From Eubacteriales bacterium (GTDB taxonomy: Bacteria > Bacillota > Clostridia > Oscillospirales > CAG-272): a stretch of 64,000 nt of DNA. Below are positions 19,704 to 33,304 of this stretch, piece after piece. The translations under genes were made by a program, and so were the position numbers. The stretch is from assembly GCA_045657105.1 (NCBI GenBank), contig JAZOSN010000032.1, positions 12,477 through 76,476 of the forward strand, written 5' to 3'. Each line of letters opens with the position of its first letter. Within the stretch, counting starts at the first letter, position 1. Under the pieces are notes generated by a model, which had not been told where the DNA came from, did no database searches, and worked only from the letters and a program-made list of their open reading frames with translations.

Positions 19704-19748
19704 GTGAACCAAAACATTAGAGCTGCGAACTGATTTTTTAATGGCCAT

Positions 19749-19764
19749 GTGCGTTTTTTCGCAC
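19749..19764 (+). promoter_or_regulatory. operator-like inverted repeat GTGCG-T6-CGCAC (copy 1)
   Basis: Lies exactly 11 nt upstream of the TATACT hexamer (extended -10 TGTTATACT at 19773-19781) in front of the 19817 gene. 19747-19765 is identical over 19 nt to the reverse complement of 32072-32090. Confidence 0.55.
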
Positions 19765-19816
19765 TATGTCTATGTTATACTGTTATTGTAAAAAACAATT
19801 ATGGAGGATACACACC

Positions 19817-20533
19817 ATGCCTACACCCATCATTTCTACGTTCATTGCCTATTGCGAAACCGAACTCAATCTTCATGACAAGCTTATGGTACAAAAGCTC
19901 ACCGATCCCAATGAAACTTTCTATAAGTCCTTACCTGTATGTATTATTGATGCTGTATTTTCGATTGGCGTTAAATATCAGTCAGTTGAAAAAGCCGAAA
20001 AAACATTTATTGAGTATTTTAATCTCAATATTTCGAGAACACTTCCTATTGTAAACGAATACACGATCAATGATTTTATCAGAGACATGAACGCTTTTGC
20101 TTCATTCGAAGACGCAGCTGTAATTGGCTTCAATAACAGGCAAAGAACATCTTCCGTTAACGGCATTTTGAAGGCGGAAGCGTGCTATCGCGTTGCAGAG
20201 GTGTTCAAAAAGCATAACATCAATACTTTGGAGGATTTTAATAAGTATGCAAATAAGCCTATGCTTGATGCTGATATTCTTAAAGTAAGAGGGCAAGGCA
20301 GCGGAATTATGCTCAAATACCTTTACATGCTTGCGGGCGATGCAAACGAAGTAAAGCCTGATAGACACATGGTTAATTTTATGAAAAAAGTATTTCCTCA
20401 TTTGACCATGTCGACCAAAGACCACCCCGAAATCAAAAAGATTATTGAAGAAACCGTGTTGGAGCTGAAGCCGAAATATCCTCAGCTTACCGAGCGTTTT
20501 CTTGATGTTCTTATTTGGGATCACATGCGTTAA
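19817..20533 (+). CDS. hypothetical protein with a possible helix-hairpin-helix (HhH-GPD-like) segment
   Basis: GGAGGA RBS before the ATG at 19817. VRGQGSGIMLKYLYMLAGDANEVKPDRHMVNFM resembles the HhH-plus-Asp motif of HhH-GPD proteins (weak, by eye). Confidence 0.5.
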   Translation: MPTPIISTFIAYCETELNLHDKLMVQKLTDPNETFYKSLPVCIIDAVFSIGVKYQSVEKAEKTFIEYFNLNISRTLPIVNEYTINDFIRDMNAFASFEDAAVIGFNNRQRTSSVNGILKAEACYRVAEVFKKHNINTLEDFNKYANKPMLDADILKVRGQGSGIMLKYLYMLAGDANEVKPDRHMVNFMKKVFPHLTMSTKDHPEIKKIIEETVLELKPKYPQLTERFLDVLIWDHMR

Positions 20534-20545
20534 GGAGACACCAAT

Positions 20546-21055
20546 ATGGAAGCCCCAAAACCCCCACTTCTCGTTTACAGAGAAAAGATGTCAGAAGTAC
20601 ATACCCCCGAAGAGATCAAGGCAGCGTTCGACGAAAGCCACTATGCCGTATGCTTTAACTACGATCGTGGTCATGGGCGAGCTAAGCACGAATTGTTCGC
20701 GGCAATATGGGAGGTCAATCCCGATGCGATCATTACCGAAGCGGATCTATGCATTATGGCAGTTGAGCCCATCGTGTGGCGTGATCAGCTCCTGCTGATC
20801 GACAAAAACGGCACCAAGGAAACGGCAAATACGATTGCGAAATTCATGGCGGAATCGGGCATCATTTCTTATGAATACCGCATTGTCGACGAGGCGGGCA
20901 TTAAGGTGTGCTTCGGCTCGATTGACGTAAGAAAAGAATCCCCTGCAGTGCGCTTCAAGTGCAATCTGCTCAATGACGGCAACAAGTTACTTTTGACCGC
21001 AAGGCATATGACAAAAGCGGATAGAGAGAAATTAAAACTGAATAAGGAGAATTGA
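20546..21055 (+). CDS. hypothetical protein
   Basis: AAGGAG RBS, tightly packed behind the previous gene; no recognisable motif. Confidence 0.5.
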   Translation: MEAPKPPLLVYREKMSEVHTPEEIKAAFDESHYAVCFNYDRGHGRAKHELFAAIWEVNPDAIITEADLCIMAVEPIVWRDQLLLIDKNGTKETANTIAKFMAESGIISYEYRIVDEAGIKVCFGSIDVRKESPAVRFKCNLLNDGNKLLLTARHMTKADREKLKLNKEN

Positions 21056-21056
21056 A

Positions 21057-21350
21057 ATGACACCGACGCTTAAAAATTATTTAAACAACAACAGATGTTA
21101 TATCGAAAAAGAAGAATTTGACAAGCTGATTTGCCGTGAGGTAATTGAAAACGGCTGGCTTAACGAGTTGCTCGACTTTCTTTATGAATGCGGGGCATCG
21201 GTTTCAACAGAAGTTATCACAAAACAACTAATCGAATTTTATGTGGCAAATAAGGTTTCAAACAACAAAGAAAATGTCGAAGCAAAAATTAGATATTTGC
21301 TCAACAAACATCAAATTATGCTTTTCAAAACTATTCTGGACGAAAATTAG
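21057..21350 (+). CDS. hypothetical protein
   Basis: AAGGAG RBS; the start is 1 nt after the upstream stop; no recognisable motif. Confidence 0.5.
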   Translation: MTPTLKNYLNNNRCYIEKEEFDKLICREVIENGWLNELLDFLYECGASVSTEVITKQLIEFYVANKVSNNKENVEAKIRYLLNKHQIMLFKTILDEN

Positions 21351-21434
21351 TAAGAACAAGCCTTCCGTATAATTCACGAGGGACGAAATCGCGGTCGTTT
21401 ACAACAGCTATATCAAACGAGAAAGGTAAAAACG

Positions 21435-22220
21435 ATGACTGAGTCTAAAGATTTCAAAATTTTCACACTTACATATTCCGGAAAATATACCGGAACGGAT
21501 GAAGAGGTCGTGATTCCCGATGGGGTTAATGTCATAAGTGCCGGTGCCTTTGAGGGAAACAAATCGATAAAAAGCGTTGTCATGCCCAATACCGTTACTT
21601 GCATTGATCCTCGCGCTTTTTGTGGTTGTTCTTTCCTTGAAAAGATCGTGCTTTCGGACAATCTGAAATTTATAGAACCGAGTGCATTCGAAGATTGTAT
21701 CAGCCTTTCTCAGGTTAATCTTCCAAGCAGTCTTAAAGCAATCGGTGCCGGCGCTTTTGAGAATAGCGGGCTCACAAATATTGCTTTTCCTGAAAATGTT
21801 AAGATAATGCCATTTGCTTTTAAAGGTTGTTCGCGCATTGAAGAACTCTATGTGCCATCCGGTGTTTCTTTATCTTCCGATGCGTTTAAAGATTGTAAGA
21901 AATTAACCAAGGTCTGTTTTGAACATGGCACATGTTCCTTAGGCTATGGTTCTTTTGCACATTGCAGTAATCTTACAACGGTGTTGCTTCCTGACGGGGT
22001 TACACGCATTGGTGATAATTCATTCTATTTGTGTGATTCGCTCAAAAAAATATATATTCCTTATACCGTTACCTCTATCGGGCGCTCGTCGTTCTATAGA
22101 ATAGGCAAAAAGAACAAGCTGACAATTCAAGCACCGAAAGGCTCGTATGCAATAAAATACGCCAAGAAAATGCATTTCAAATACGAATATGTCGAAGAGA
22201 ATCCATATGTAAATGGGTAA
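21435..22220 (+). CDS. BspA-type leucine-rich repeat (LRR_5) protein, no signal peptide
   Basis: Repeated units of about 23 aa of the form IP..V..IG..AF..C..L..I. Confidence 0.75.
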   Translation: MTESKDFKIFTLTYSGKYTGTDEEVVIPDGVNVISAGAFEGNKSIKSVVMPNTVTCIDPRAFCGCSFLEKIVLSDNLKFIEPSAFEDCISLSQVNLPSSLKAIGAGAFENSGLTNIAFPENVKIMPFAFKGCSRIEELYVPSGVSLSSDAFKDCKKLTKVCFEHGTCSLGYGSFAHCSNLTTVLLPDGVTRIGDNSFYLCDSLKKIYIPYTVTSIGRSSFYRIGKKNKLTIQAPKGSYAIKYAKKMHFKYEYVEENPYVNG

Positions 22221-22234
22221 AATTTAGAGAACAA

Positions 22235-22268
22235 GCCCTCCGCAATTTTGCGGAGGGCCTGTTCGTTT
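22235..22268. terminator. bidirectional terminator between convergent island genes
   Basis: GCCCTCCGCA-ATTT-TGCGGAGGGC hairpin followed by a T-rich tail. Confidence 0.75.
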
Positions 22269-22270
22269 GA

Positions 22271-23086
22271 TTATCTTGGTCTATAAGCACCACAATTTAG
22301 GGAATTATATTTTGCTGTAATCGAACATTTTGCACTGTTTACACAGTGGCTACATTTATCCAATGCTGCGTGTTCTTGTTTCCTTCGAGCCCATACTTCT
22401 TCCAAATCACGGCGCCTTTGTGCGTGTTGTGCTCGCACGTCCTCTATTCTTCGCCTTTCTGCTTCTTCTTTACGAGCGCGTTCTTCTTGTTTTCGCATTT
22501 CTTCATCATGCTTAAATCTTGCCTCACGATCTCGTTTCAAGACCTCTTCATATTCCGCCGCATCATTTGATGAAGACAACTCTTGTGTTCTATAGGAATA
22601 AGAGGAATAAGAATTCGAGGAATTACCGTCCCCATACGCCTTATCTAAATATTCCATATACTGCTCAAAGCTATCCTCTGTGATTTTTCTTTGTTCCCAG
22701 GCGTCTTTATGGAGTTTTTCCAAAGGAGCTTCAATCGGTTTCATCTCCATATCTATTTTGTTACAAAACGTCTCGTACTCTTTCCGATTCGCCTCCATTT
22801 CATCCAGCACGGCTTTTATGGCGGAATCGTCTTCAATCGCGGCTTCCAAGGGCTTGCTTCCGTTTTTGCGTTCATGGCGTATCTTTTCCTCAAGACGATC
22901 CACTGCTTGATTTCGGAATTCGGACTGCTTTTTTTCAAACTCGTCGGTCTTTTCCTTTTTATTTTTCTTCAACTCACTGAGTCTCTTTAACAGTGAACTA
23001 ATTTTTGCTTTTATTCGCTCTTCCTTTTTCTCCGATTCGTGCCAGTTCTTTTCGTAAATTTCTACCATCTCATAGATGTCTGCCAT
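22271..23086 (-). CDS. K/E-rich coiled-coil protein with a C-terminal cysteine cluster (hypothetical)
   Basis: GGGAGGA RBS before the ATG at 23086; long charged heptad-like sequence; C-terminus CSHCVNSAKCSITAKYNSLNCGAY. Confidence 0.6.
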   Translation of the reverse strand: MADIYEMVEIYEKNWHESEKKEERIKAKISSLLKRLSELKKNKKEKTDEFEKKQSEFRNQAVDRLEEKIRHERKNGSKPLEAAIEDDSAIKAVLDEMEANRKEYETFCNKIDMEMKPIEAPLEKLHKDAWEQRKITEDSFEQYMEYLDKAYGDGNSSNSYSSYSYRTQELSSSNDAAEYEEVLKRDREARFKHDEEMRKQEERARKEEAERRRIEDVRAQHAQRRRDLEEVWARRKQEHAALDKCSHCVNSAKCSITAKYNSLNCGAYRPR

Positions 23087-23106
23087 CTTTTTTCCTCCCA
23101 TTTTTG

Positions 23107-25185
23107 TTACGGTTGAACGTCTCCGTCGCTACAGTGGATAGTCTTGCCAAGCGTTCCGCCGCCTGAATCTTTTTCCACCTGTGCCCACTGAGCAACCGTT
23201 CCTTCGTAATGAATCTCTCCGTCAATACTGTTCAATCCATACGTTACGATACGTTTGAGTGATAGTGGAAGGATCAATTTATCCAAAGCATCGCAATTTG
23301 AAAATGCGCTTCTGCCAATGCTTTCGATGTTTGGAGATAAAACTAATTTCTCTAACTTTTTGCATCCGCTGAAAGCATAAGCTCCGATACTTGTTACAGT
23401 GTCGGGCATAACAATTTCCAAAACCTCTGTACATCCCTCAAACATGTAATCATCTATCTCGGTTATTCCCGCGGGAAGAACAATTTTGGTAAGACCGTAT
23501 TTTGCGGCATTTTTATAATCTCCGCGTTGAGCGTAATTATATGCTTTCAAAATCGGCAGGTAGTTAACGTCGTATTCACTCGTGGTATATCCCATATCAC
23601 TGAGCAGCTCATAAGCGGCTTTGTAGTTGCCGCTATCAGCGTATTCAATCGACATCGCCTCTACTTCATCGATAATGGCGGTCATGATGTCTTTGCTGTC
23701 CTTATAATCCATGATGTCGTAAAAGGCATAATAGGCGTCTGAATAGCGCTTGTTTTGATACATCGCTTTGGCTTGAATATATTTTTCTTCTATATCCTGT
23801 GAGAGCATTGCATTTTCGCATTGCTCTATGTAATCTTGACTGTCTTTATAATCAATAATTGCTTCAAATTTCCCAATCGCATCGGAAAAATGTCCGGATA
23901 GGAATAAAGACACTGCTTCTCGGTAAATGGCTTCCAGCTTTTCGTTTTCAAGGGCTTGTTCACACAGAAGAATATATTCTGCACTGTCTTTATAGTTTCT
24001 GATCAGATCGAAAGCGGTAAGTGCTTCCTCAAAATTACCGCTTTCATAAAGTGCTATCGCAGATCGATACCGCTCCTCAGCTGTTGGCTCATTGTTGTTA
24101 TTCTCTGAGTTTTCTCCCAAGGACAGGACTTTCATGAGTCTGCTGTCGGGATACTCCTTTCTTCCGTGTCCGTCATAGCTAATCGCGCTTATCTTAAAGG
24201 TTGCAGAAAGCTCCTTTGCTGTTGCGTAATAAAGCGTCAAAACTTCTTCGCTTGATCTTCTGTCGATATTTAGAGTAAATACGGTGCTGTCTTTGGATAA
24301 TATATCGCCTGACAAGGTTACGATAGATGAATCTAACAAATTACCATTTGCGTCATATATATTTAAATCGCCCTTTATCTGTGTAACATCTTTATACTTT
24401 TCATTGGTTACCTTGATCTTAAATGCAGTAACATATCCGTCTACATATATGGATCTTTCATCAGATTCGCATTTTTCGACAATAGAAATATGAATATCTT
24501 TACAAGTAGAATCAACATGATTGGCACGAATTGTTCCCAAAGAAAAACAAACGCTTACAATTACAACACAAGAAATCAAACATCCCCAAAGAGCGGGTTT
24601 GTTTGTCCTTTCCGAATCGCCAAATATTGCATAATAAATATATCCCGTTGCAACCAAAAGCAATCCTATCCAGAATAACGCCGATATCGGACGCAATGTG
24701 ATCAAAAGTCTTATTGCGCAAGCAGTGGCACAGCACCAGCCAAAGGACACCACGCCGAATCCTATCACTTCGTGATAGGATTGGATTGTGTCAGACAACG
24801 ACAATTCGTAAGTATAGCCGGTATAACCGCGTTTTTTAAACAGTTGATTTAATTTAGCTCTCAGCTTAAATGATGTAGATTTGCCTACATTCATAAGTGT
24901 GACATAAAGATCATATATCTCCTTGGTTTTCTCGGTAACCTCATAGTTTTCAAGAAAATAAATTAAATCAAGAAGCTGATCTGCTGTGCCATTGTCTTGA
25001 TCGATATGTATTTTTTTGATAGCAAACACAATAGCCGCTATGCACGCACAGCACAATGAAATAATGACAATCGCAGCGTTTCCAAAAGGGATATTATCGT
25101 GATTGATGGAAAATAACAAACTCAATATTCCGCATAATATTGTTGATATCACAATAGATATTTGACCCGAGAACTTATTTTTCAT
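23107..25185 (-). CDS. multi-pass membrane protein with repeated xYKDS helical repeats and a C-terminal BspA-type LRR
   Basis: N-terminal TM helices; three repeats ending in YKDS(A/Q/K); C-terminal LRR_5-like units (ITEIDDYMFEGC..., VTSIGAYAFSGC..., IESIGRSAFSNC...). Start placed at 25185 behind an AAAGGAG RBS. Confidence 0.7.
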   Translation of the reverse strand: MKNKFSGQISIVISTILCGILSLLFSINHDNIPFGNAAIVIISLCCACIAAIVFAIKKIHIDQDNGTADQLLDLIYFLENYEVTEKTKEIYDLYVTLMNVGKSTSFKLRAKLNQLFKKRGYTGYTYELSLSDTIQSYHEVIGFGVVSFGWCCATACAIRLLITLRPISALFWIGLLLVATGYIYYAIFGDSERTNKPALWGCLISCVVIVSVCFSLGTIRANHVDSTCKDIHISIVEKCESDERSIYVDGYVTAFKIKVTNEKYKDVTQIKGDLNIYDANGNLLDSSIVTLSGDILSKDSTVFTLNIDRRSSEEVLTLYYATAKELSATFKISAISYDGHGRKEYPDSRLMKVLSLGENSENNNNEPTAEERYRSAIALYESGNFEEALTAFDLIRNYKDSAEYILLCEQALENEKLEAIYREAVSLFLSGHFSDAIGKFEAIIDYKDSQDYIEQCENAMLSQDIEEKYIQAKAMYQNKRYSDAYYAFYDIMDYKDSKDIMTAIIDEVEAMSIEYADSGNYKAAYELLSDMGYTTSEYDVNYLPILKAYNYAQRGDYKNAAKYGLTKIVLPAGITEIDDYMFEGCTEVLEIVMPDTVTSIGAYAFSGCKKLEKLVLSPNIESIGRSAFSNCDALDKLILPLSLKRIVTYGLNSIDGEIHYEGTVAQWAQVEKDSGGGTLGKTIHCSDGDVQP

Positions 25186-25273
25186 AACAAACAAGCTCCT
25201 TTCCGAAATGTATACAGAAATTATACCACATTTTGAATGTCTTTTCAACAGTTATTAGTTATCCAAACTGCTA

Positions 25274-26353
25274 TCAATTTGTTTTAAACAGAGAGGAATA
25301 ATAGACCTGATACCAATTAAGAATAATGGAATATTTCAATTCCAACACCGCAAGAGCCTTTGTTGACATATAATGCGTTTTTCCGATAAATCCGCAAAAC
25401 CAATCGTCAAGACCAAGCGTTGAAAGCGTTTGATTGGTGTAATTGTCCATTCCATGTTCAAGGTAATAGCCACACCGAGCTTTGTTTGCTGCTTCATAGG
25501 CAAAGCCCATATCGTAAAAGTAGCAATCTTTCATCGCGTCGCGGATGGCCATAAACACCTCGTCGCGCGTGGCGGGGATATCGGATAGAGAGCAAACGCC
25601 GTCTGCTATCAGATGCTCCGCGTTCTGCGTCCAAGTGTTAGTGCCGTGGGAAAGGCCAATCAGCTTCAAAAGCTCGTGATACGTTTGTGGATAAGTGAGC
25701 GCAATCATCTGCTTAATTACTTTCTCACCGCCAATACCTGCTAATTTCTCAAAATTTCCCGTCAAAAGTCGGTGCTTGACCTCGCGGTCGTTCAAGTCAA
25801 TGTCATCCATACAAACTCCCGTAGCCTTTTCGCGTCGCTTGCAAATGTTGGTCGTATATAACAGCGATTTTTGATAATGTGAGAAGGTCGCCTCGGACAG
25901 CGCAAGATAACTTTCGTCGGTCATATCTGCGACTCTGAGCTTTTGGGCATAGGGTAGATAGGTTTCAAAGGGAATGTCAAAGCCGTCGGCTTTCATTCTT
26001 TCGCCGCACGCGCAGGTGTGGTCACGCAGATCGAATACACATTTGCCGTTCAACCATTCCACTGTCTTGCATTTGGGGCAATAGTAGTGCGCGGGGAGCG
26101 GATTTTCGTCTGTCGCACCAAGCAGATATGCCACAAGGCAGGAGGCAACCGTGTTTTTGACAACCATTTGTTCATTCGCTTGCTTTACTTCGGCACGGAG
26201 CCTGAAAAGATCGTAAAAGTATTTTCCAACCTCGTATTGCATAAAGGCTTGTTTTTCGCTATAAAAGCGGTTAACGATACACAGATCAGGCATATCACCG
26301 TAAAGCTCAAATATGCGTTTGTACGCTCTATCCCAGATTTCTTTTTCGGTCAT
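25274..26353 (-). CDS. shortened PolC-like protein (PHP-domain Zn-finger segment plus downstream helical segment); probably not a polymerase
   Basis: ENPLPAHYYCPKCKTVEW, CACGERMKADGFDIPFETYLPY and IGLSHGTNTWTQNAEHLIADGVCSLSDIPATRDEVF parallel PolC segments recalled from memory (NPLPPHYVCPNCK, DIPFETFLGF, SGLSHGTDVWLGNAQELI...CTLSEVIGCRDDIM). At 359 aa it is far shorter than PolC. Confidence 0.6.
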   Translation of the reverse strand: MTEKEIWDRAYKRIFELYGDMPDLCIVNRFYSEKQAFMQYEVGKYFYDLFRLRAEVKQANEQMVVKNTVASCLVAYLLGATDENPLPAHYYCPKCKTVEWLNGKCVFDLRDHTCACGERMKADGFDIPFETYLPYAQKLRVADMTDESYLALSEATFSHYQKSLLYTTNICKRREKATGVCMDDIDLNDREVKHRLLTGNFEKLAGIGGEKVIKQMIALTYPQTYHELLKLIGLSHGTNTWTQNAEHLIADGVCSLSDIPATRDEVFMAIRDAMKDCYFYDMGFAYEAANKARCGYYLEHGMDNYTNQTLSTLGLDDWFCGFIGKTHYMSTKALAVLELKYSIILNWYQVYYSSLFKTN

Positions 26354-27339
26354 ATTTCAATCCCCGCAATTCTTTTTCCTTCTTTGGTATAATTCAAAGA
26401 TCCGTATATGTTCCTTGCCTCGTTCTCACAAAGCATAATTCTTTGCGCGCCAAGCAAGAGAGGGAGGTCGATTTCATCTTTGAGGTAGCGGCTAATTGGG
26501 ATGAGTAGTCGTTCCTCGTCGCAAAGCTCGCTACGCACATACTCCAAATCCATATAATTGTGAATGCACTCGTGATATGCCACACTGTCACGGTCAATAA
26601 AATATCCGTATGCCGTCATGTCGCTGCCATCTGTCATCGGACGTTCACCCTCGGTACAAGTAGACGTGAGCACGAACAGATCTGCAAAGGTGGTGGGGCG
26701 CGTATATTTTCCAAGTACGGTTTTTAAAATATCCCCTTTTTTGAACGGTGTCGGGAAGGAAAACCACATATTTCGGAATACCTCTTGGAAAATTTCTGTA
26801 TACTTCACGTCAGAAAGATAACGGCTTTCATCAACTCGCACGATTTCCTTTTCAAGATTGAAACGAACGAAAATCTTTATATCCACCTTTCCAATATAAG
26901 TCTTCACGAATTCTATGAAATTTGGCTGCGGTATATCAATATCATTAACTTTCATAGAAGTTACAGAGAACGAATATGCCTCTTCAAAGGTGTGAAAGAG
27001 TGTAGTCTCCTCATACCAATTATCATCAAAATACTCTCGATAGGAATATACGGCATTCGGCTCTTTCTGAAAAAATTCTTGAATCAAATAATTTTCAATT
27101 TTCATATATCTTCTCAAAAAACGATGAAGCAATCGTTGCGGAAGATTAAAACGCCCTGCGGGAATGACGCAATCTTCAGAATTATCAAGAATATTTAGCC
27201 ATGCCGTATGCTTTTCCTCAAGCGTATGGTTTTTGCTCTGCCACACGAGCCATGCGGATTCAAGTGCAGTGGGTTCGTAGCCGATCTTTTCCCAATGCGC
27301 ACGAATGTCTTGCGAGTTAATAAAATCATAAATCTTCAT
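26350..27339 (-). CDS. hypothetical protein
   Basis: Start placed at the ATG at 27339 behind an AAGGAAAA RBS, 13 nt after the upstream stop; the stop overlaps the next start (ATGA-type overlap at 26350-26353). Confidence 0.55.
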   Translation of the reverse strand: MKIYDFINSQDIRAHWEKIGYEPTALESAWLVWQSKNHTLEEKHTAWLNILDNSEDCVIPAGRFNLPQRLLHRFLRRYMKIENYLIQEFFQKEPNAVYSYREYFDDNWYEETTLFHTFEEAYSFSVTSMKVNDIDIPQPNFIEFVKTYIGKVDIKIFVRFNLEKEIVRVDESRYLSDVKYTEIFQEVFRNMWFSFPTPFKKGDILKTVLGKYTRPTTFADLFVLTSTCTEGERPMTDGSDMTAYGYFIDRDSVAYHECIHNYMDLEYVRSELCDEERLLIPISRYLKDEIDLPLLLGAQRIMLCENEARNIYGSLNYTKEGKRIAGIEI

Positions 27340-27352
27340 TTTTAATTTTCCT

Positions 27353-27733
27353 TTATTTTTGACGCAATAATAAATAATCATAATGTGCAGATCCGTCGTT
27401 AACGATTCGAATTGAAAGATTTTTTCCAAAAATATTGAATTCCGATTCAATCAATTCTATCAGCTTTGGCTCATTTAAGGTGGGATTAAGATAAATCGTG
27501 ACTTTCTTCTTTTTGATCTCCACACGCCCACGCGGATAATAATTATACAGATGTCCGTTCGTGATGTTGCGATAAAGCTTCGCCCACTCTGCTTTGTGAT
27601 TGAAATTTTCACCGGACTTTGATGAATATTCAACCGCTTCAAGTGCATTTCCATATTCATCGCAAGCAACCTTCCGTGTAATCAACCTTCCTTGCTGAGG
27701 ATCGCACCAAAATATTCCTTTATATAATTCCAT
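27353..27733 (-). CDS. hypothetical protein (126 aa)
   Basis: An ORF in operon context; features GIFWCDP and YNYYPRGRVEI segments that I cannot assign to a family. Confidence 0.5.
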   Translation of the reverse strand: MELYKGIFWCDPQQGRLITRKVACDEYGNALEAVEYSSKSGENFNHKAEWAKLYRNITNGHLYNYYPRGRVEIKKKKVTIYLNPTLNEPKLIELIESEFNIFGKNLSIRIVNDGSAHYDYLLLRQK

Positions 27734-27796
27734 ATCTTTTCATACACCTTCTCACATTTTTTCATTGATATTGAACCTTGAATCAGCATCGTAATA

Positions 27797-28420
27797 CTAA
27801 AGATCTTCAAAGCGAATTTTGTTCATTTCGGCACATTTTTCCGCACACGAGCCGCTGTGACCCTTGACGACGAGATCGGGGTGTACATACCCTGAAATCT
27901 GACGCGGCATCGGGCTGCCGTCGTTAAGTGTTTTGCCGAATGCCGCGGGTTCAAAAACTGTATTTTCCCCTAAAACGGTTATTTCGCGAAGCTTTTCACA
28001 TATTCCGAAAGCATTTCCTCGCACAAGCTCAAGCGACTTGGGAAGTGTAATTTTGCGAATCGAAGAGCCTGAAAACGCACCCACGTCAATCACAAGAATA
28101 CCCTCGGGAATCGTAAGTGAGTCAAGTGTCGCATTGTACCCAAAGGTACACGCTCCGATAACCTCGACAGAACCGTCGCTTGGAATGGTACATTGGTTAA
28201 GTCCCAAGACAAGTGTCCTTGTGTCTCGGTGAATGAGACAACCGTTCGTGTATGAAAAATCGGTATTCCCCTCAGCTACTTTGATCGTTTCAACACCGTC
28301 AAAGGCATACGCCATAAGCAAGGTTTCCGAAACACTTTCCGCTTCTGCGGGGATGGTCAGAACACCATCGCCGTCATTCAAAATATCGATAATAACTCCC
28401 GATTCAATTACTGTTTTCAT
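27797..28420 (-). CDS. BspA-type leucine-rich repeat (LRR_5) protein, cytoplasmic
   Basis: Repeats such as VEVIGACTFGYNATLDSLTIPEGILVIDVGAFSGSSIRKITLPKSLELVRGNAFGICEKL; no signal peptide. Confidence 0.7.
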   Translation of the reverse strand: MKTVIESGVIIDILNDGDGVLTIPAEAESVSETLLMAYAFDGVETIKVAEGNTDFSYTNGCLIHRDTRTLVLGLNQCTIPSDGSVEVIGACTFGYNATLDSLTIPEGILVIDVGAFSGSSIRKITLPKSLELVRGNAFGICEKLREITVLGENTVFEPAAFGKTLNDGSPMPRQISGYVHPDLVVKGHSGSCAEKCAEMNKIRFEDL

Positions 28421-28489
28421 TTTTATATCTCCTTTACAGATTTAATTATCAAAAATGTATTTGTATGCGTTAAAGAATAAGGGATTGCT

Positions 28490-29092
28490 TTATTTCCATC
28501 TTTCATCCGCCCAATCTATTGCTTCGTTTCTGCCCATATCAAGCAGACATGCTCGGTATCCATCTGCATACTGTGCAGGAATGATCTTAACTACTTTGCT
28601 TCCGTTTCCGTCATAGAAGCTGACACTTACCGTATCTTCCGTTTCTTGTCTTATGATAAAGCCCGAGGTTATCTTTCTCCTTTCATATCCCTCGATCGGC
28701 GTAACGGAATAATAGGAATACAGTCCTTCCTCAGAGCAATCCCATGTATCTACGATCGTTCCGTTTATTACTGCACTCCAGTGCCCGGACATCGAAATAA
28801 TATATCGTCCCTTGGGATGGATTTCACAAAATTCATGGGCACTTACACGAGAACCGTCATCCTTTTTAGGTATAGCTACTCTTGGGAATCCCAAAACTTT
28901 TTCAACATAGCTTCTTGGGTTTCCAGGAGAATTGAAGTCCTTTGCTCCCGTTATCTTTTTGTGAGCATTAAGACCTCGTTGCACATCCATATAGTCCATT
29001 CCGCAGGTGACTGAAATTGCTCGTTTTACACAGTCATCAACAAGCAAATGCCTCGGATGAGCGTTGTAGTATCTGAAGTTACTGTTCTCCAT
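28490..29092 (-). CDS. hypothetical protein with a possible Cys-His-Asp (papain-like) triad
   Basis: DDCVKRAISVTCG near the N-terminus and SGHWSAVINGTIVDTWD about 85 aa later resemble papain-like/C39-like peptidase cores (by eye only). Confidence 0.45.
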   Translation of the reverse strand: MENSNFRYYNAHPRHLLVDDCVKRAISVTCGMDYMDVQRGLNAHKKITGAKDFNSPGNPRSYVEKVLGFPRVAIPKKDDGSRVSAHEFCEIHPKGRYIISMSGHWSAVINGTIVDTWDCSEEGLYSYYSVTPIEGYERRKITSGFIIRQETEDTVSVSFYDGNGSKVVKIIPAQYADGYRACLLDMGRNEAIDWADERWK

Positions 29093-29095
29093 ATT

Positions 29096-29356
29096 TTAGC
29101 TCCTTTCTTTCATAATGCGGTTATATTCATCACGGTATTCTCGCAGTGTAGCACCGTTTGCGGCAGAATAGTGATCCTCTGGGAATCCGTCGTATTCCCA
29201 GCCGCAGTGTCCGCAGATGTAGTAATTATCGAGTGTTTTTTGCCCGCAAACAGGGCAAAGTATAACGGTGTAAATATCGTCTACGACGGTCCCGAGCTCA
29301 GGTAACTCGCATCCGACAAATTCCCCGCGTATTGCGGCGTAAATGTTTTCTTTCAT
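29096..29356 (-). CDS. CPCC-family cysteine-rich (zinc-ribbon) protein
   Basis: CPVCGQKTLDNYYICGHCGWEYDGFPED matches the Cys_rich_CPCC pattern. Confidence 0.7.
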   Translation of the reverse strand: MKENIYAAIRGEFVGCELPELGTVVDDIYTVILCPVCGQKTLDNYYICGHCGWEYDGFPEDHYSAANGATLREYRDEYNRIMKERS

Positions 29357-29365
29357 AAACTCTCC

Positions 29366-29692
29366 TTAAAATCTGTATTTGGCAGCAGTCTGCGCAAGCC
29401 ATTCTTCTGCTTTTCTTACACCGCTTTCCGAGCTTTCAAATTCTGCTCGTTCAAAATCGGTTTTGTTTCCGCCAAGATGCCAAGGCTGGATTATATAGCT
29501 TTCGGCAATCAAACGAAATGTGCTTTCTTCGCCGCTTGATATGTCCACGTAAACGCGGTAGTTAAACGTTCGTGCACTCACACACCCTTGATCGGGAAGT
29601 GTGCCCATAGAGCCCGAGTAGGTGTTTGTAACAAAACGCCCTTCGTGCTTGCTTACAAGCCAATGATAATGCGTCAGATCAATCTTCGACAT
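29366..29692 (-). CDS. hypothetical protein
   Basis: GGAGG RBS 6 nt before the ATG at 29692; overlaps the 3' end of the upstream gene by 14 nt (translational coupling). Confidence 0.5.
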   Translation of the reverse strand: MSKIDLTHYHWLVSKHEGRFVTNTYSGSMGTLPDQGCVSARTFNYRVYVDISSGEESTFRLIAESYIIQPWHLGGNKTDFERAEFESSESGVRKAEEWLAQTAAKYRF

Positions 29693-30335
29693 AGTTAACC
29701 TCCACATTTATGACTTGTACCTTGTTGTGCTTCAACTTTTGGGTGGGATAATTCGGGCATACAGCAATAAATACCTGTCTGCCGAGTCTTGCAAGTTCGT
29801 CAATATAAGGAGAAACGTCTACAGATTCATCAATACGATCAAAAAAGTGGTAAATAAATATAGGACGAGAATCACCGTTGTTCGTATCTATATTTAATGT
29901 TGTTAAGAATTTTTCGAAAGACAATAGAACTTTTTCTGACATCGGCAGGCACGAGGTAGATGAACGCATATCCTCATCGGCGAAAACGTGGCAGGTGTTA
30001 ATGTTACGGGCTCGCCTTTTTTTCTCGTACTCTTGAGTATCAGGCAGAGAAAAAAATCTTTTTTCTTTCGTGAAGTTAACACCCATAGTGTGTTCTGCAT
30101 CCGCCGAGTAGATATAGCAAATGTCATACTCCTTTTTGTCTATTTCAACACACCCGTGGATAATAGATTCGTGAGGTATGTGGATACCTGTGGCTTGATC
30201 CCCTCTGTACGTTCCCGTCATTGCCTCTATAAATAGCATATATTTGTCGCTGTTAGTTCCCTTAAAGCACATAATCGGTGTTTCAAGGGTTATCTCTCCG
30301 CTGCTATCATTAAAATCAATTCGTTTTACCTTCAT
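29679..30335 (-). CDS. hypothetical protein, possible degenerate ABC/SMC-like ATPase
   Basis: The N-terminal strand-loop FKGTNSDKYMLFIEAM sits where a Walker A would be but lacks GK(S/T). The C-terminal PIFIYHFFDRIDESVD...LARLGRQVFIAV resembles Walker B/D-loop. Confidence 0.45.
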   Translation of the reverse strand: MKVKRIDFNDSSGEITLETPIMCFKGTNSDKYMLFIEAMTGTYRGDQATGIHIPHESIIHGCVEIDKKEYDICYIYSADAEHTMGVNFTKEKRFFSLPDTQEYEKKRRARNINTCHVFADEDMRSSTSCLPMSEKVLLSFEKFLTTLNIDTNNGDSRPIFIYHFFDRIDESVDVSPYIDELARLGRQVFIAVCPNYPTQKLKHNKVQVINVEVNYVED

Positions 30336-30396
30336 ACCGAATTCCTTTCTTTACATGAAACTGTGGTGGTTGTAAATTCAGTATAACATATAGCAT

Positions 30397-30412
30397 GTGC
30401 GAAAAAACCACC
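30397..30412 (-). promoter_or_regulatory. operator-like repeat (copy 2, GGTGG-T6-CGCAC in gene sense)
   Basis: Lies 11 nt upstream of the minus-strand TATACT (extended -10 TGTTATACT = 30380-30388), directly in front of the 30335<-25274 operon. Confidence 0.5.
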
Positions 30413-30415
30413 ATC

Positions 30416-30447
30416 AAAAAAGCAAGAGCATAAAACTCTTGCTTTTT
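30416..30447 (-). terminator. intrinsic terminator after the WYL regulator gene
   Basis: AGCAAGAG/CTCTTGCT stem flanked by an A-run and a T-run, 10 nt after the stop at 30457. Confidence 0.75.
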
Positions 30448-30456
30448 ATAAAAATA

Positions 30457-32028
30457 TTACGTGTCTATTCTGAAATCAATTTCGGGGATACACTTTTTTA
30501 ACTTCTCGATATCGATACAGTCGGCAGTTTCTTGATCAACTCGCAAAATTTGAAGATTTTTAGCTTCATATATTGGCGAAAGATCCAACTTTTGCGCACC
30601 GTGCAGTTGTAATCTTGTAAGGGCGTTGCATTTATTAATGGGTGAAAGATCTGCGGTTCCGGGTTTTATAATATCAAGCTCTTTCAAGCGCGGAAGATCT
30701 TTGATAAATGAAATATCAATTTTATCTCCGCCGCCAATATACACCTTCTCGCTGTTGATATAATCTGACAGCATATTCCAATCGGTAACGACCGATGCGT
30801 CGTAAATTTTAATAGTTTTAACAGCTTCCACTCTTTCCGATAGAGACATCGCCTTGTGTTTTTTGAAATTACTTAATCCTACATTTAGCATTTTACCGAT
30901 CAGTAAACAGTTTTTAGATATTGTAGTATTACACGAGTAAAATTCTATATCTTGGTCGTTTTGAATATATCGAATCTTCATCATCCGCGCCATGCTTTGC
31001 AATCTATATCGCAGATCTTGTGGCTCGATTACATCAACACTATCTGCATGGTGTAGTGCAAAGCGGAAAACATCTTCGAAATTCGCGCTGAACGTGATCT
31101 CTCGAAAAACAGAATTTGTTTTTGTAATATTGACCCTCGTGCCAAACTCATCAATAACATCACCGATGCCGCTCTCGGTTGCGCGCAACTTTATATATCC
31201 GATTTCGCCTTCTTGCATATAGGGGTGCTGAAGCAAATATTCACGAACATCTTTGTAAAGCTCGGATTCAGCCTTTGAATCAAGGATAGTAATCTCCGTC
31301 ATTTTGTCAATTCTGTAGTGTCTTAACTTTTTTTCCCCGAGTATCGTTCCGATTACATAATATCTACCATGCGATGTAACTATGTGATACGGATTGAAAG
31401 TGATTTTATCATTTGAAATTCGGTGCAGCTCCTTGTCGGATGCATATTGACATTCATAGAATGAAACCTGTCTGCGTACTCCACGTGAATGGGCTACATT
31501 TTCTTCGGTTTTAAAATTTAGAGCTTCACTAAGCGCATTAAGATTATCCGCAAAAGTATTACTTTCAGAAGCAAAAGCCTTGCTTTCACTGAATTCTCCA
31601 ACGTTGCTTGCGTTTTTATTTCTGGAAAATCTGGTCAGCTTTTCGACAAGCTTTTTGGAGGCTTCTGCATCAAGATTTTTATCAAATTTTACATGATCGA
31701 TCAAAAGCAAAAGTTCGCCTTTGGAGAAACGTTCTTTTTGTGCAAGGTAAATGTCGGTCATAACACCCTTAGTGTTCTTACGTTTTTCCTTACTGTATTT
31801 AACGGCATAAGGATTATTACCTTTTTCGTCACAAAGCTCTTTGAATTTTTCAATATTCTCGCGAACGGTCTTTGGCGTTACTTCTATAGCAAATTTTTCT
31901 TTAAGTCTGTTTGCTATTTCGGTACATGTCATTTTTTTGATCTTTCCGGTTCTTATATCTAGTCGTCCGGTTTCTTTTTGCAGTATATTGAGTATTCCTA
32001 CTGCAACCATTCTTTTATCACTGCTCAT
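30457..32028 (-). CDS. HTH-WYL domain transcriptional regulator with a C-terminal leucine-rich-repeat extension
   Basis: AGGAGG RBS before the ATG at 32028. N-terminal wHTH-like MTCTEIANRLKEKF..., WYL-like core GRYYVIGTILGEKKLRHYRIDKM, and C-terminal LRR units (LKELDII..., LTRLQLHG..., LQILRV). Confidence 0.7.
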   Translation of the reverse strand: MSSDKRMVAVGILNILQKETGRLDIRTGKIKKMTCTEIANRLKEKFAIEVTPKTVRENIEKFKELCDEKGNNPYAVKYSKEKRKNTKGVMTDIYLAQKERFSKGELLLLIDHVKFDKNLDAEASKKLVEKLTRFSRNKNASNVGEFSESKAFASESNTFADNLNALSEALNFKTEENVAHSRGVRRQVSFYECQYASDKELHRISNDKITFNPYHIVTSHGRYYVIGTILGEKKLRHYRIDKMTEITILDSKAESELYKDVREYLLQHPYMQEGEIGYIKLRATESGIGDVIDEFGTRVNITKTNSVFREITFSANFEDVFRFALHHADSVDVIEPQDLRYRLQSMARMMKIRYIQNDQDIEFYSCNTTISKNCLLIGKMLNVGLSNFKKHKAMSLSERVEAVKTIKIYDASVVTDWNMLSDYINSEKVYIGGGDKIDISFIKDLPRLKELDIIKPGTADLSPINKCNALTRLQLHGAQKLDLSPIYEAKNLQILRVDQETADCIDIEKLKKCIPEIDFRIDT

Positions 32029-32072
32029 ATTTGCCTCCTGTAGTTTTGTATCACTATTATAGTAAGCACAAA

Positions 32073-32088
32073 GTGCGAAAAAACGCAC
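32073..32088 (-). promoter_or_regulatory. operator-like inverted repeat GTGCG-T6-CGCAC (copy 3)
   Basis: Lies 11 nt upstream of the minus-strand TATAAT (32056-32061) in front of the WYL regulator gene. A second extended -10 (TGTGATATAAT, minus strand) lies just upstream. Confidence 0.55.
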
Positions 32089-32330
32089 ATTGATATTATA
32101 TCACAGATCTTTTAATTTGTCAAATTCCTGAAGCGCCATGCGGAGGGTGTTGCCACTGTAATATTTGACTTTAAGTGAAGGAGATCGTCACAGTTTGATA
32201 AGGACGTTTTCTACATATTAGACGATGTTGAAATACGGGTTCCCCCTTATAGGGTAATTATTGAATTTGGGTTGAAAACGTTCTTTTTTGATATGATTCC
32301 GTCCAAATCCGTATTGATTACGTAAGTAGA

Positions 32331-32380
32331 ACTGCTCTAAATCGTTCTAATCGATGATAATCGTTTCTAAACGCTTCTCA
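32331..32380. repeat. five tandem 10-bp units (consensus aTCGtTCTAA)
   Basis: ACTGCTCTAA ATCGTTCTAA TCGATGATAA TCGTTTCTAA ACGCTTCTCA, in exact 10-nt register. Confidence 0.6.
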
Positions 32381-32553
32381 ATAATATATCCTTTAAAAAT
32401 CGTCTGTCCTTTAGAAATGATAGAGTTTCGAGAAGCTTTTGCGGTCATTTTCTTTTGGAAATAACTATCGTTTTCAACGCAAAATCATTTTAATATGACA
32501 AGAAGAATGACTTTCATTCAGAGACGCAACCGAGGGTAGAAAATCCCTGTTCT

Positions 32554-32780
32554 TCATTTCTGAAAGAGGGTCATTTTCATTTCGTAAAGAGCATCATCAC
32601 TCTCGAAAAGAACATCATCCGTCATATTGAAACGAGAGCACTTCATCATATCGAAAGGGCGGCGGCATCATTTCAAAACGAAAGTTTTGCCTTCCATTAA
32701 TCTAAAAAGAAATCCAAAATAAATCTGAATGACTCATTTCAAAATGATAGATGATATATCATCTTGAAATGAAAGATACG
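32554..32780. repeat. iteron-like array of about 8 degenerate units of 17-28 bp (core TCAT..TC..GAAAG)
   Basis: Units start at 32554, 32571, 32594, 32615, 32643, 32668, 32734 and 32759. Each has TCAT(T/C) followed by a (T)GAAA(G) core. Confidence 0.55.
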
Positions 32781-32799
32781 AACAATTCCCATAAAAGAC

Positions 32800-32833
32800 G
32801 GTCCGTACCGAGAGGTGCGGACCATATTTTTTT
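32800..32833 (+). terminator. possible intrinsic terminator at the end of the ORF-free segment
   Basis: GGTCCG/CGGACC stem with a 12-nt loop, then ATATTTTTTT. The stem is short, so this is tentative. Confidence 0.4.
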
Positions 32834-33076
32834 GTGAAAAATTTTTTGTATTTTTCTTGAAATACCCCCTTTTTGCAAAGCATTTATTATTTACAAAAGC
32901 AAAATTGGAGGTGAGAGGGATGTATAGAACTTCGTGACTAAAATTTTTGTAGGGAAGAACAAATAACGAAAAAACGCTGCCCGATTAAAAAAGCAGTTTC
33001 GGGCAATAATAGAAAGGAAGGATTTTACTATGATGAATTGTGTTTTGATGCAGAGGACTCGTGAAGGTGAGGTGCT

Positions 33077-33259: not shown

Positions 33260-33266
33260 GTATTAT

Positions 33267-33304
33267 GGGCGGCGAAATTTATTTTGCCGCCCGTGACTTT
33301 TTTT
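33267..33304 (+). terminator. intrinsic terminator after the small ORF
   Basis: GGGCGGC/GCCGCCC stem followed 4 nt later by T8. Confidence 0.55.

Follow-up and report, generated by a model that had tools for sequence, protein, structure and literature searches.

A T6-CGCAC motif stands upstream of the first gene of a transcription unit at three of three sites in the 64-kb window (the whole stretch of 64,000 nucleotides analysed), and at each of them the gap to the -10 hexamer is exactly 11 nt. This arrangement is real and far beyond chance. Judged from sequence, the WYL-type sensor-regulator encoded on the island itself most likely docks at this motif. That this winged HTH-WYL-WCX-LRR protein is an activator of the DriD/PafBC/SiwR kind, acting on hybrid promoters without a -35 box, is a tentative reading (rough probability 0.45). 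The motif copies and the promoter elements around them are the following.

19746 to 19764, + strand: putative operator of site 1, C-ATG-TGCG-TTTTTT-CGCAC, in which both 5-nt arms of the inverted repeat are complete around a T6 spacer; it occupies about -39 to -24 of the cassette promoter.
19773 to 19781, + strand: extended -10 of site 1, TGT-TATACT, with the hexamer at 19776-19781 preceded by TATGT of the TRTG type.
25220 to 25248, - strand: internal sigma-A-type promoter, TTGAAA-17-TGgTATAAT, before the 713-aa gene and without the motif.
30380 to 30388, - strand: extended -10 of site 2, TGT-TATACT, with the hexamer at 30385-30380.
30397 to 30412, - strand: motif of site 2, GGTGG-TTTTTT-CGCAC, the proximal half-site and T6 tract only.
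32056 to 32061, - strand: -10 hexamer of P2, TATAAT, 11 nt past site 3, with neither a -35 nor a TG extension.
32073 to 32088, - strand: putative operator of site 3, GTGCG-TTTTTT-CGCAC, spanning about -39 to -24 relative to P2 and about +1 to +16 relative to P1.
32095 to 32123, - strand: P1 of the regulator gene, a perfect TTGACA-17 nt-TG-a-TATAAT.

Sites 1 (+, 19749-19764) and 3 (-, 32088-32073) both read GTGCGTTTTTTCGCAC, and their identity extends over 19 nt, ATGTGCGTTTTTTCGCACT (19747-19765 against the reverse complement of 32072-32090); site 2 (-, 30412-30397) is the variant copy GGTGGTTTTTTCGCAC. An unbiased repeat search of positions 17000-35400 returned sites 1 and 3 as the inverted-repeat pair I1 and sites 1 and 2 as I3. 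The composite TTTTTTCGCAC-N11-TATAMT is present three times in the window with 3e-5 expected, and the 11-mer TTTTTTCGCAC alone three times with 0.04 expected. When up to three mismatches are allowed, the 16-mer has 5 matches (1.0 expected), a count reached in 0 of 100 shuffles. The shared layout consists of a distal arm at about -39 to -35, the T6 tract at -34 to -29, the proximal CGCAC at -28 to -24, 11 bp and the -10. Only motif and -10 are common to the three sites; spacers, leaders and first genes are unrelated. The first-pass annotation had proposed a genome-wide scan for the motif. It was not found elsewhere in the window, the composite was absent from 185,579 representative genomes, and viral contigs gave only chance matches to it.

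All coordinates and sequences given in that annotation for motif copies and -10 hexamers were borne out on re-reading. Its 16-nt inverted repeat is intact as a unit at site 1, but at site 3 the distal arm erodes among relatives, and site 2 lacks it and is not palindromic (the arms pair at 2 of 5 positions). The element that counts is the proximal T6-CGCAC with its fixed spacing, not the whole repeat. The three motif promoters do lack a good -35, as had been claimed: nothing good is found at spacings of 16-18 nt, and GTTTTT matches at 1 of 6 positions. The local norm is a near-consensus -35 with a TGn -10, as in promoters 17109, 18350, 25248, 33315, 35271 and P1. The -10 elements are of the standard sigma-A type, with TGn. 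Extended -10 elements of the TRTG type are able to support transcription without a -35, so an activator may not be strictly required at sites 1 and 2. The regulator gene had been assigned a -35-less promoter, and a perfect TATAAT does lie 11 nt past site 3 (a hexamer like this would fall at a fixed offset by chance with a probability of about 0.001-0.002), but a perfect promoter, P1, is found directly upstream too. P1 is the sole 12/12 promoter match within 17-36 kb, and site 3 begins about 7 nt past its -10. The three motif promoters had also been said to drive all three transcription units of the island; these promoters stand, but a fourth, motif-free one (25248-25220) lies inside the long operon.

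The units form part of a mobile gene island of an uncultured gut Clostridium, with a serine recombinase at its boundary and accessory cargo.

19817 to 22220, + strand: transcription unit 1 (the 19817 cassette), with genes for proteins of 238 aa (phrog_29694), 169 aa, 97 aa and 261 aa (LRR_5/BspA type).
22229 to 22264, both strands: bidirectional intrinsic terminator between the convergent units, with a 16-bp stem (10 GC pairs) on the - strand and a 10-bp stem on the + strand.
22271 to 30335, - strand: transcription unit 2 (the 30335 operon), with genes in the order 218 aa, 113 aa, 86 aa (Cys_rich_CPCC), 200 aa (phrog_3754), 207 aa (LRR_5), 126 aa, about 329 aa, 359 aa (PolC-fragment-like), 713 aa (membrane/TPR/LRR_5) and 276 aa.
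30416 to 30442, - strand: intrinsic terminator of the regulator gene, GCAAGAG...CTCTTGC plus a T run, directly upstream of site 2 and kept in relatives.
30457 to 32028, - strand: regulator gene, 523 aa, with a winged HTH (about 1-95), a linker, WYL (about 190-250), WCX (about 279-350) and a C-terminal LRR domain (about 390-523).

PADLOC recognised no defence system in the cargo of the island. Searches of the cargo proteins gave neither a sigma-like nor any other DNA-binding domain, and several of the island's proteins are without a recognisable domain.

In all related metagenomic loci retrieved (4 distinct sequences per site) the stretch from motif to -10 is free of indels, which do occur just outside it, in the length of an A-run in the site 1 leader and in the T run upstream of site 2. 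What is invariant is the promoter-proximal half, T6-CGCAC (about -34 to -24), together with the spacing. The distal arm of site 3, GTGCG here, is GTGAG or GTGAA in relatives with the proximal arm unchanged, and that of site 2 is GGTAC or GATAC. The site 1 operator is kept in L028, L032/L033 and L034; the conserved block opens exactly at CATGTGCG, and the DNA upstream is unalignable. At site 3, conservation opens abruptly at the P1 -35. The extended -10 is unchanged in four distinct relatives at site 1 and in all relatives at site 2, and the P2 hexamer in L001, L002, L019, L020 and L024, where flanking bases vary. Variable positions in the promoter block number 0 of about 38 in the elements versus 6 of about 57 elsewhere (p about 0.04), a comparison of limited power to separate elements because the motif-bearing relatives are all close and their promoter blocks nearly identical.

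The three units and the WYL gene are inherited together in L020 and L028, where a homologue of the 19817 cassette adjoins the WYL operon; the core order of unit 2 (218-108-90-193-...-PolC-like) is kept in these loci and in L019. Upstream of cassette homologues of 80-83% identity that lie beside other regulators (L029, L030) the motif is absent. By sequence comparison, then, the motif tracks the WYL gene rather than the cassette, and its being a selectively maintained promoter element, common to three units that travel with that gene, is supported. The motif is co-inherited with the WYL gene, is absent beside other regulators and falls within the promoter region of the regulator itself, so the arrangement is best read as a WYL regulon that is specific to the island and autoregulated. 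The first-pass annotation had reached this reading, which survives with the corrections given above; its plain HTH-WYL regulator has to be amended, as the protein also bears the LRR domain.

The regulator scores 30.7 bits against Pfam WYL (cut-off 21.8), a sub-threshold 17.3 bits against WCX, and E 1.5e-19 in its PADLOC WYL match. Its residues 33-346 align with a canonical 325-aa WYL/WCX protein and residues 5-354 with an R. albus WYL protein; the LRR domain is similar to the LRRs of Roco and internalin proteins (E 6e-13). In an AF2 model the N-terminus has the topology H-H-H-beta-beta, although the model is poor (pLDDT 49). Among all PDB sequences, a 19-sequence profile of the HTH-WYL-WCX part found only DriD (E 1.8e-10) and PafC/PafB/PafBC; neither BrxR nor CapW was among the matches, with this profile or with one of 4 sequences. 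The best Foldseek matches are PafBC-RNAP and DriD. The WYL strand reads RYYVI (family consensus xYYLIG), and RWHVR, the motif of the CapW/BrxR repressors (PMC11662680), is absent from it. Such kinship with activators does not prove activator function.

In the most likely mechanism, known from the activators DriD, PafBC and SiwR, the motif would be an operator forming the upstream half of three hybrid promoters without a -35 box, and the consensus promoter P1 would supply the regulator constitutively. Once its sensor domains are triggered, probably by single-stranded DNA at the WYL domain and by some ligand at the LRR domain, the regulator would bind the operators and recruit or adapt RNA polymerase with its housekeeping sigma-A to the -10 elements, so that both the 19817 cassette and the 30335 operon would be switched on. 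In front of its own gene the regulator, once bound, would sit at about +1 to +16 of P1 and -39 to -24 of P2, so that, as we propose, P1 would be occluded while P2 takes over. The motif with its fixed geometry and conservation, its joint occurrence with the regulator gene, and the domains and kinship of the regulator are observed. We infer that the WYL-LRR protein binds the motif and that binding activates transcription, and likewise the identities of the ligands.

Several known systems resemble this one. DriD, a homodimeric wHTH-WYL-WCX activator of Caulobacter crescentus and the best sequence-profile and fold match of the island regulator, has its own promoter among its targets (PMC13004042; PMC9186387). 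It binds a palindromic site where the -35 is missing; in every promoter that DriD regulates, this site overlaps the -35 position and keeps one and the same distance to the -10 (PMC13004042), a geometry that argues for the activator reading. DriD differs in lacking an LRR domain, in serving a chromosomal DNA-damage regulon and in its site, a 20-bp palindrome, whereas the island motif has 5-bp arms around T6, one of them dispensable. The host here is also different, a Firmicute with extended -10 promoters, and the island regulator gene has an extra consensus promoter upstream of its site. In mycobacteria, PafBC uses hybrid promoters composed of a canonical -10 and an element at -23 to -28 without a -35, with one HTH reading the DNA (PMC8635444), and SiwR, a homodimer, binds a 19-bp imperfect palindrome between -35 and -10 in which the -26 region is essential (PMC10693628). 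In the island motif invariance is limited to the arm beside the -10, CGCAC at about -28 to -24; this asymmetry matches the '-26 element' (-23 to -28) of sigma adaptation by PafBC and SiwR and again suggests an activator. PafBC is, however, a heterodimer of two WYL proteins without an LRR domain, found in Actinobacteria and controlling a global regulon of about 150 genes.

A repressor of the BrxR/CapW type, acting on the same motif with opposite sign, is unlikely but the strongest of the competing explanations. At rest it would occlude the -35/spacer region of two extended -10 promoters and block P1 at its transcription start, and release by a ligand would de-repress the island. BrxR and CapW, also wHTH-WYL-WCX proteins, are encoded on mobile phage-defence islands and control their own gene and neighbouring operons; the setting here, with its recombinase boundary and accessory cargo, is similar. 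To our knowledge, every WYL regulator so far characterised from a mobile or defence island is a repressor, which counts against an activator. So does the position of site 3 some 7 nt past the -10 of a 12/12 consensus promoter, a layout classic for repressors under negative autoregulation and identical with that of R-BOX1, just downstream of the BrxR promoter (PMC9122601). The half-repeat at site 2 recalls the second BrxR site, where a single half-repeat is kept and one repeat is enough for repression (PMC9122601), and the TRTG-extended -10 elements could make the promoters of sites 1 and 2 active unaided. Simple occlusion, however, has no need of an exact -10 spacing at 3 of 3 sites (0.001-0.002 by chance for the hexamer), nor does it account for target promoters without the -35 that is the local norm. 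BrxR/CapW operators are about 20-27 bp long and have no fixed -10 distance, the repressor clade's RWHVR and profile match are missing, and PADLOC recognised no defence system in the cargo. An activator is favoured because of the profile restricted to DriD and PafBC, the fixed -10 distance and the missing -35.

Another binder is improbable, be it a transcription factor of the host, a further protein of the island or an alternative sigma using T6-CGCAC as a -35-like element. Binding by the WYL protein is a prediction, the asymmetric conserved element would suit a sigma-type -35, and domain-less island proteins are available; yet the cargo has no detected sigma-like or other DNA-binding domain, the -10 elements are ordinary sigma-A ones with TGn, and the motif follows the WYL gene and not the cassette. 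Against a host-wide factor, the motif does not recur in the window nor the composite in the representative genomes. A sigma-54 reading was rejected on its spacing.

Slightly less probable still is a promoter module without a dedicated binder, a T-tract or UP-like element plus -10 copied within the island and kept as a promoter. The T6 tract coincides with the upstream DNA that RNA polymerase contacts, and like-placed A/T tracts with differing flanks occur in the R. albus and Butyrivibrio promoters described below. Copying, however, sits poorly with sites that share motif and -10 among otherwise unrelated sequences, the conserved GC-rich arms (palindromic at sites 1 and 3) would have no role in a plain UP element, and at site 3, downstream of a complete promoter, an UP element would be functionless. 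A 5-bp leader hairpin, GUGCG-U6-CGCAC, serving as attenuator or stabiliser would be transcribed from P1 and is weakly flagged by a terminator scan, but it is disfavoured and very improbable, as it lies upstream of the -10 and outside the transcript at sites 1 and 2, and its stem is broken, without compensation, at site 2 and in the site 3 relatives (GTGAG, GTGAA). Nor is the fold of the leader unusual (z -1.77), and there is no Rfam match.

Two parallel cases in Clostridia are counted for the reading in which the motif is an operator of an activating WYL protein. On R. albus pRUMAL01 a distant WYL gene (25% identity) has a canonical promoter, and two downstream cargo genes, homologous to island cargo, each have a module that lacks a -35 and ends in ATATGTTATACT. 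A TGTGCA-A7-TGTACA repeat that immediately follows the WYL gene of Butyrivibrio pCY186 stops 11 nt short of a TGT-extended -10.

The motif under study is present in the promoter region of a WYL regulator gene and in two neighbouring promoters. The regulator is a 523-aa WYL-WCX protein with a probable N-terminal winged HTH and a C-terminal LRR domain (gene 30457-32028, minus strand). The neighbouring promoters are those of the cassette beginning at 19817 (unit 1, with a 238-aa protein as its first gene product) and of the minus-strand operon beginning at 30335 (unit 2). The three sites are as follows.

Site 1, in front of unit 1: 19749-19764, plus strand, GTGCGTTTTTTCGCAC, followed by 11 nt and then TGT-TATACT
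Site 2, in front of unit 2: 30412-30397, minus strand, GGTGGTTTTTTCGCAC, followed by 11 nt and then TGT-TATACT
Site 3, in front of the regulator gene: 32088-32073, minus strand, the 16-mer of site 1, GTGCGTTTTTTCGCAC, followed by 11 nt and then TATAAT

A first-pass annotation, made from the sequence alone, had described these copies as an inverted repeat at a constant 11 nt from the -10 box, with sites 1 and 3 identical over 19 nt. On re-reading the window, all three coordinates are exact, the 19-nt identity is borne out and the 11-nt gap is exact at every site. The inverted repeat fails at site 2, where the arms pair at only 2 of 5 positions. In the 64 kb the composite TTTTTTCGCAC-N11-TATAMT is observed three times against 3e-5 expected, and the 11-mer TTTTTTCGCAC by itself three times against 0.04. 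The 16-mer with up to three mismatches has five matches in the window (1.0 expected), and in an unbiased repeat search the site pairs are among the island's top inverted repeats (I1, I3). Chance is excluded as the origin of the arrangement. The invariant arm of the motif lies at about -28 to -24. At 16-18 nt spacing the best -35 match at sites 1-3 is 1/6, whereas neighbouring promoters have near-consensus -35 boxes.

Several other accounts of the motif were considered and rejected. In a sigma-54 reading (TCGCAC taken as TGGCAC), the GC dinucleotide is misplaced by 2 nt at site 3 and missing at site 1. Copying of the promoter through gene duplication does not fit first genes that are not paralogues. 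A match to GCGTTTTTTCG at 32955-32977, a possible fourth site, is the T-tail of a terminator-like hairpin.

A perfect promoter, P1 (TTGACA-17-TG-a-TATAAT, 32123-32095, minus strand), the only 12/12 sigma-70-type promoter of the region, lies immediately upstream of site 3. Since the motif starts about 7 nt past the -10 of P1, it covers about +1 to +16 of P1 and -39 to -24 of the promoter P2, formed with the downstream TATAAT. Only P2 had been recognised earlier as the promoter of the regulator gene; its TATAAT is where it was placed, 11 nt after site 3, and P1 had been overlooked. Similarly, the motif had been assigned to all three transcription units of the island. The three sites stand, but the long minus-strand unit also has an internal promoter without the motif (TTGAAA-17-TGgTATAAT, 25248-25220), in front of the gene for a 713-aa protein.

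The WYL domain of the regulator is recognised by Pfam PF13280 (30.7 bits, cut-off 21.8) and by the PADLOC WYL model (E 1.5e-19, residues 193-350), and it is matched in 18 of 19 family members. A WCX extension follows it. [quoted passage not shown] At the N-terminus there are only sub-threshold HTH matches (residues 32-64). The AF2 model has helices at 3-19, 35-46 and 52-67 and strands at 76-81 and 90-95 (pLDDT 65-79), the N-terminus aligns with P0004 and with a WYL protein of R. albus, and HTH_11 or HTH_12 is found in a few family members; all this is consistent with an N-terminal winged HTH. Over longer stretches, residues 33-346 align with P0004 and residues 5-354 with the R. albus protein. 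The stretch from about residue 390 to 523 is an LRR domain resembling those of Roco proteins and internalins (E 6e-13). The AF2 model, built from a 3-sequence alignment and poor overall (pLDDT 49), has a helix-helix-helix-hairpin N-terminus and an LRR solenoid at usable confidence; it served only for domain order and for Foldseek ranking, in which PafBC-RNAP and DriD take the top ranks. A profile built from the HTH-WYL-WCX part of 19 family sequences, run against the whole PDB, matches only DriD (1.8e-10), PafC, PafB and PafBC, with no match to BrxR or CapW chains at E<=1. Such family profiles are required, as phmmer with residues 1-353 finds no match in the PDB. The WYL strand reads RYYVI in the regulator and xYYLIG in the family, and RWHVR is absent.

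The HTH-WYL-WCX-LRR architecture is widespread: at least 100 clusters at 50% identity (P0131-P0279) have representatives of 500-750 aa that align with the regulator over their full length at 24-37% identity. Some reach 600-900 aa, which points to additional domains at the C-terminus. No published description of a WYL-LRR regulator was found in a literature search. The regulator has few close relatives: a set of 5.8 billion proteins includes three, and with the regulator or family members as query none was found in 185,579 representative genomes or among viral contigs.

Phage-defence islands and SOS-independent DNA-damage responses increasingly turn out to have WYL regulators as their main switches. 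To our knowledge few of these proteins have been dissected, and neither Clostridia nor LRR-bearing forms are represented among them. Regulators of the wHTH-WYL-WCX class bind, as dimers, a particular operator in their own promoter or an adjacent one. In the activator subgroup the regulator contacts RNA polymerase and raises transcription, and an ssDNA ligand promotes DNA binding. The repressor subgroup (CapW/BrxR), associated with anti-phage defence, binds without ligand to a palindromic operator overlapping the promoter or just downstream of it. The known wHTH-WYL-WCX regulators fall into these two groups, and RWHVR in the WYL strand marks the CapW/BrxR clade (PMC11662680), within which sequences are highly conserved. 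Among the activators, DriD has sites that overlap the missing -35 position, and all promoters under its control have the same spacing between site and -10 (PMC13004042); it also acts on its own promoter (PMC13004042; PMC9186387). PafBC uses a -26 element (-23 to -28) and a -10 without a -35, with the DNA read by one HTH only (PMC8635444). SiwR is a homodimer that binds a 19-bp imperfect palindrome between -35 and -10, of which the -26 region is essential (PMC10693628). The repressor BrxR binds an inverted repeat located just past its own promoter; its second site conserves a single half-repeat, one repeat being enough for repression (PMC9122601).

Homologues of the regulator, of the first unit 2 gene and of the first unit 1 gene led to related metagenomic loci (L001, L002, L009, L019-L024, L027, L028 and L032-L034). 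At site 1, L032/L033 and L034 have the complete palindrome, and L028 (T7-GCAC) departs from it by one base. Conservation starts exactly at C-ATGTGCG, and the DNA upstream is unalignable and carries other genes. At site 3 the distal arm is GTGCG in the window, GTGAG in L001/L002/L024 and GTGAA in L019/L020; T6-CGCAC, both -10 hexamers and the P1 -35 are fixed across relatives, and conservation sets in abruptly at that -35. At site 2, T6-CGCAC and the -10 are invariant. The other half there reads GGTGG, GGTAC or GATAC, so that site 2 has no distal arm at all. The 11-nt gap is kept at all three sites and in all relatives; indels between motif and -10 are found in none of the loci and are present just outside this interval. 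The site 1 leader has a second small inverted repeat (19782-19803, plus strand), ATTGT-AAAAA-ACAAT, with short arms around an A tract in an operator-like design. It is kept in relatives with a differing length of the A run.

TTTTTTCGCAC-N8-TGTTATACT has no match in 185,579 representative genomes and none in viral contigs, and in metagenomes it has one true relative (L009) and one chance match within a response-regulator gene. The looser TTTTTTCGCAC-N11-TATAMT has nine matches in viral contigs, all single and unrelated. The three units travel together: locus L020 has the regulator, the operon and the convergent cassette, and in L028 site 1 accompanies the cassette and site 2 the operon, with the C-terminus of the regulator at the contig end. 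Homologues of the cassette (80-83% identity) that adjoin other regulators lack the motif and have other repeats instead. These are a direct repeat GGTGCATAG, three times, in the promoter of the 238-aa-gene homologue next to an AraC-type gene (L029 9800-10000) and a direct repeat AAATACACATAAA, twice, next to a gene for a 302-aa HTH_11 protein (L030 9880-10000). A single cargo cassette has apparently been placed under different regulators by re-wiring. The co-inheritance in L020 and L028 and the absence in L029 and L030, a comparison confounded with sequence distance, are the best available evidence that would tie the motif to the WYL-LRR gene.

The motif is best read as a candidate operator of an island-specific regulon of the WYL protein. 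An activator design is favoured by the fixed 11-nt gap, the arm at about -28 to -24, the missing -35 and the kinship with DriD and PafBC. The constant distance to the -10, the motif over the -35/-26 region and the lack of a functional -35 are also the points of likeness to the hybrid promoters of DriD, PafBC and SiwR. A model that combines activation of units 1 and 2 and of P2 with occlusion of P1 accounts for all features, and we give it a probability of roughly 0.45. P1 would provide the sensor constitutively. Once activated, the regulator would bind all three sites, turning on units 1 and 2 and P2 and simultaneously occluding P1.

Pure repression by the WYL-LRR protein is the strongest competitor, though we consider it less likely than the combined model. 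The motif is located at the start site of the perfect P1, in a position like that of R-BOX1 of BrxR, and the TRTG-extended -10 elements of sites 1 and 2 may function without an activator. The fixed spacing to the -10, the invariant arm and a -35 that is missing where near-consensus boxes are the local norm favour the activator instead; the kin of the regulator are DriD and PafBC, and it further differs from CapW/BrxR in having RYYVI, not RWHVR, in its WYL strand and no recognised anti-phage defence system beside it. Recognition of the motif by a different binder is improbable, and a promoter module that works without any binder slightly more so. An RNA hairpin or terminator is very improbable: relatives have a broken stem, sites 1 and 2 lie outside the transcript, and the z-score of the fold is only -1.77.

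A broader reading than the combined model is quite speculative. WYL-LRR proteins could form a large and so far unstudied group of cytoplasmic sensor-activators in gut Clostridia, in which LRR and WYL domains jointly gate polymerase recruitment of the DriD/PafBC kind. The LRR domain would be a protein or ligand sensor and the WYL domain an ssDNA sensor. Cargo would join the regulon via a portable -35-less 'plug' promoter (half-operator, T-tract, 11 bp, TGTTATACT), and variable cassettes on mobile islands would enter it simply by carrying this promoter.

The system would be new in pairing WYL control with an LRR-bearing regulator and candidate -35-replacing operators on a Firmicute mobile island. 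If activation is correct, the -35-replaced, fixed-distance promoter design of DriD, PafBC and SiwR would be general and recognisable from sequence alone. Targets of uncharacterised WYL regulators could then be found by a simple rule, and there would be a way into the large WYL-LRR family and its unannotated cargo (LRR_5, PolC-fragment-like and CPCC proteins). The significance rises if the family is a general activator class with portable hybrid promoters. Sigma-adaptation-type control, known from DNA-damage regulons of Actinobacteria and Alphaproteobacteria, would then, for a class of sensor-activators, reach modular mobile islands of Firmicutes as well. If the protein is a repressor instead, this is another fairly ordinary case of BrxR-like island control.

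Parallels on plasmids are few and were found post hoc. In pRUMAL01 of R. albus 7 (L035), the WYL protein is 25% identical to the regulator and its gene has a canonical promoter (TTGCAA-17-TGcTATAAT). Two cargo genes downstream are each behind a copy of one -35-less module, CACCGCCG-N-T5/6-..CCCATC..-ATATGTTATACT. Plasmid and island share cargo families, an LRR_5 protein and a homologue of a 126-aa protein. In pCY186 of Butyrivibrio proteoclasticus (L036 4020-4065), TGTGCA-A7-TGTACA, 8 nt and TGT-TATTAT precede the gene after the WYL gene, which itself follows mcrBC-like genes. This repeat, the sole such match in 27.7 kb of four plasmid loci, ends 11 nt before the TGT-extended -10, the geometry of sites 1 and 2 with different arms. 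Both plasmids fit a pattern in which the regulator has a canonical promoter and its targets have hybrid ones. The LRR protein beside the R. albus WYL gene was rejected as an unfused version of the C-terminal LRR domain, having no similarity to that domain and matching LRR_5 cargo. The two pRUMAL01 modules are intergenic and about 90 nt long (4040-4120 and 5905-5985), with CACCGCCG, a T-tract, ATATGTTATACT and a terminator-like hairpin (ATACCGAAG...CTTCGGTAT and a T run) ahead of the ribosome-binding site. A promoter directly before such a hairpin suggests an attenuator or a portable cassette junction.

The island itself (about 17.1-35.2 kb) lies between a MatE transporter gene and the housekeeping genes ligA-obg-prfA-sua5-parC-spoIID. 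Its G+C is below that of the surroundings, and a large serine recombinase is encoded at its right end (33315-35141). The host, a spore-forming Clostridium-like bacterium that is uncultured, is seen in animal-gut metagenomes only, and among sequencing runs the locus is found only in gut metagenome DNA. The cargo is mostly unannotated and includes LRR_5/BspA-type proteins, a Cys_rich_CPCC zinc ribbon and the phage-found families phrog_29694 and phrog_3754. Among 10 operon proteins PADLOC recognises the WYL protein alone and no known defence system, and no Rfam family is found in the region. A 359-aa protein (25274-26353, minus strand) matches two stretches of PolC-type DNA polymerase III (NF001688, E 1.4e-44), roughly palm/finger, and is far too short for a polymerase. 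Two diverged paralogues of it, with a protein weakly similar to the DnaA ATPase, are found in L019 (7474-9584) and L020 (5018-7242) as conserved members of the motif-bearing operon.

Between the regulator promoter and the serine recombinase unit there is about 1.1 kb (32140-33300) without a convincing ORF or Rfam match. It has loosely repeated CATCAT...GAAA(A/C)G segments at 32540-32700 and a strong hairpin at 32800-32823, and it could be a degraded gene, a recombinase attachment region or a non-coding RNA. What lies to the left of the cassette varies: in the window it is an AAA_14/DUF4143 ATPase gene (18402-19703, plus strand) with its own consensus-like promoter (18350-18378), ending 46 nt before site 1, in L028 and L032 a LexA/CI-like HTH_3-Peptidase_S24 gene, and in L034 a LysM/CAP gene. 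The LexA/CI-like protein was rejected as the binder, its gene being missing from the window and L034 with the motif still there. Within the cassette, the LRR_5 gene (21435-22220) is missing in L020 and L032. The 30 nt at 21353-21382, after the gene for a 97-aa protein, are 73% identical to 22228-22257, where the bidirectional terminator behind the LRR_5 gene begins (repeat D6), and this gene looks like an insertion that duplicated the terminator.
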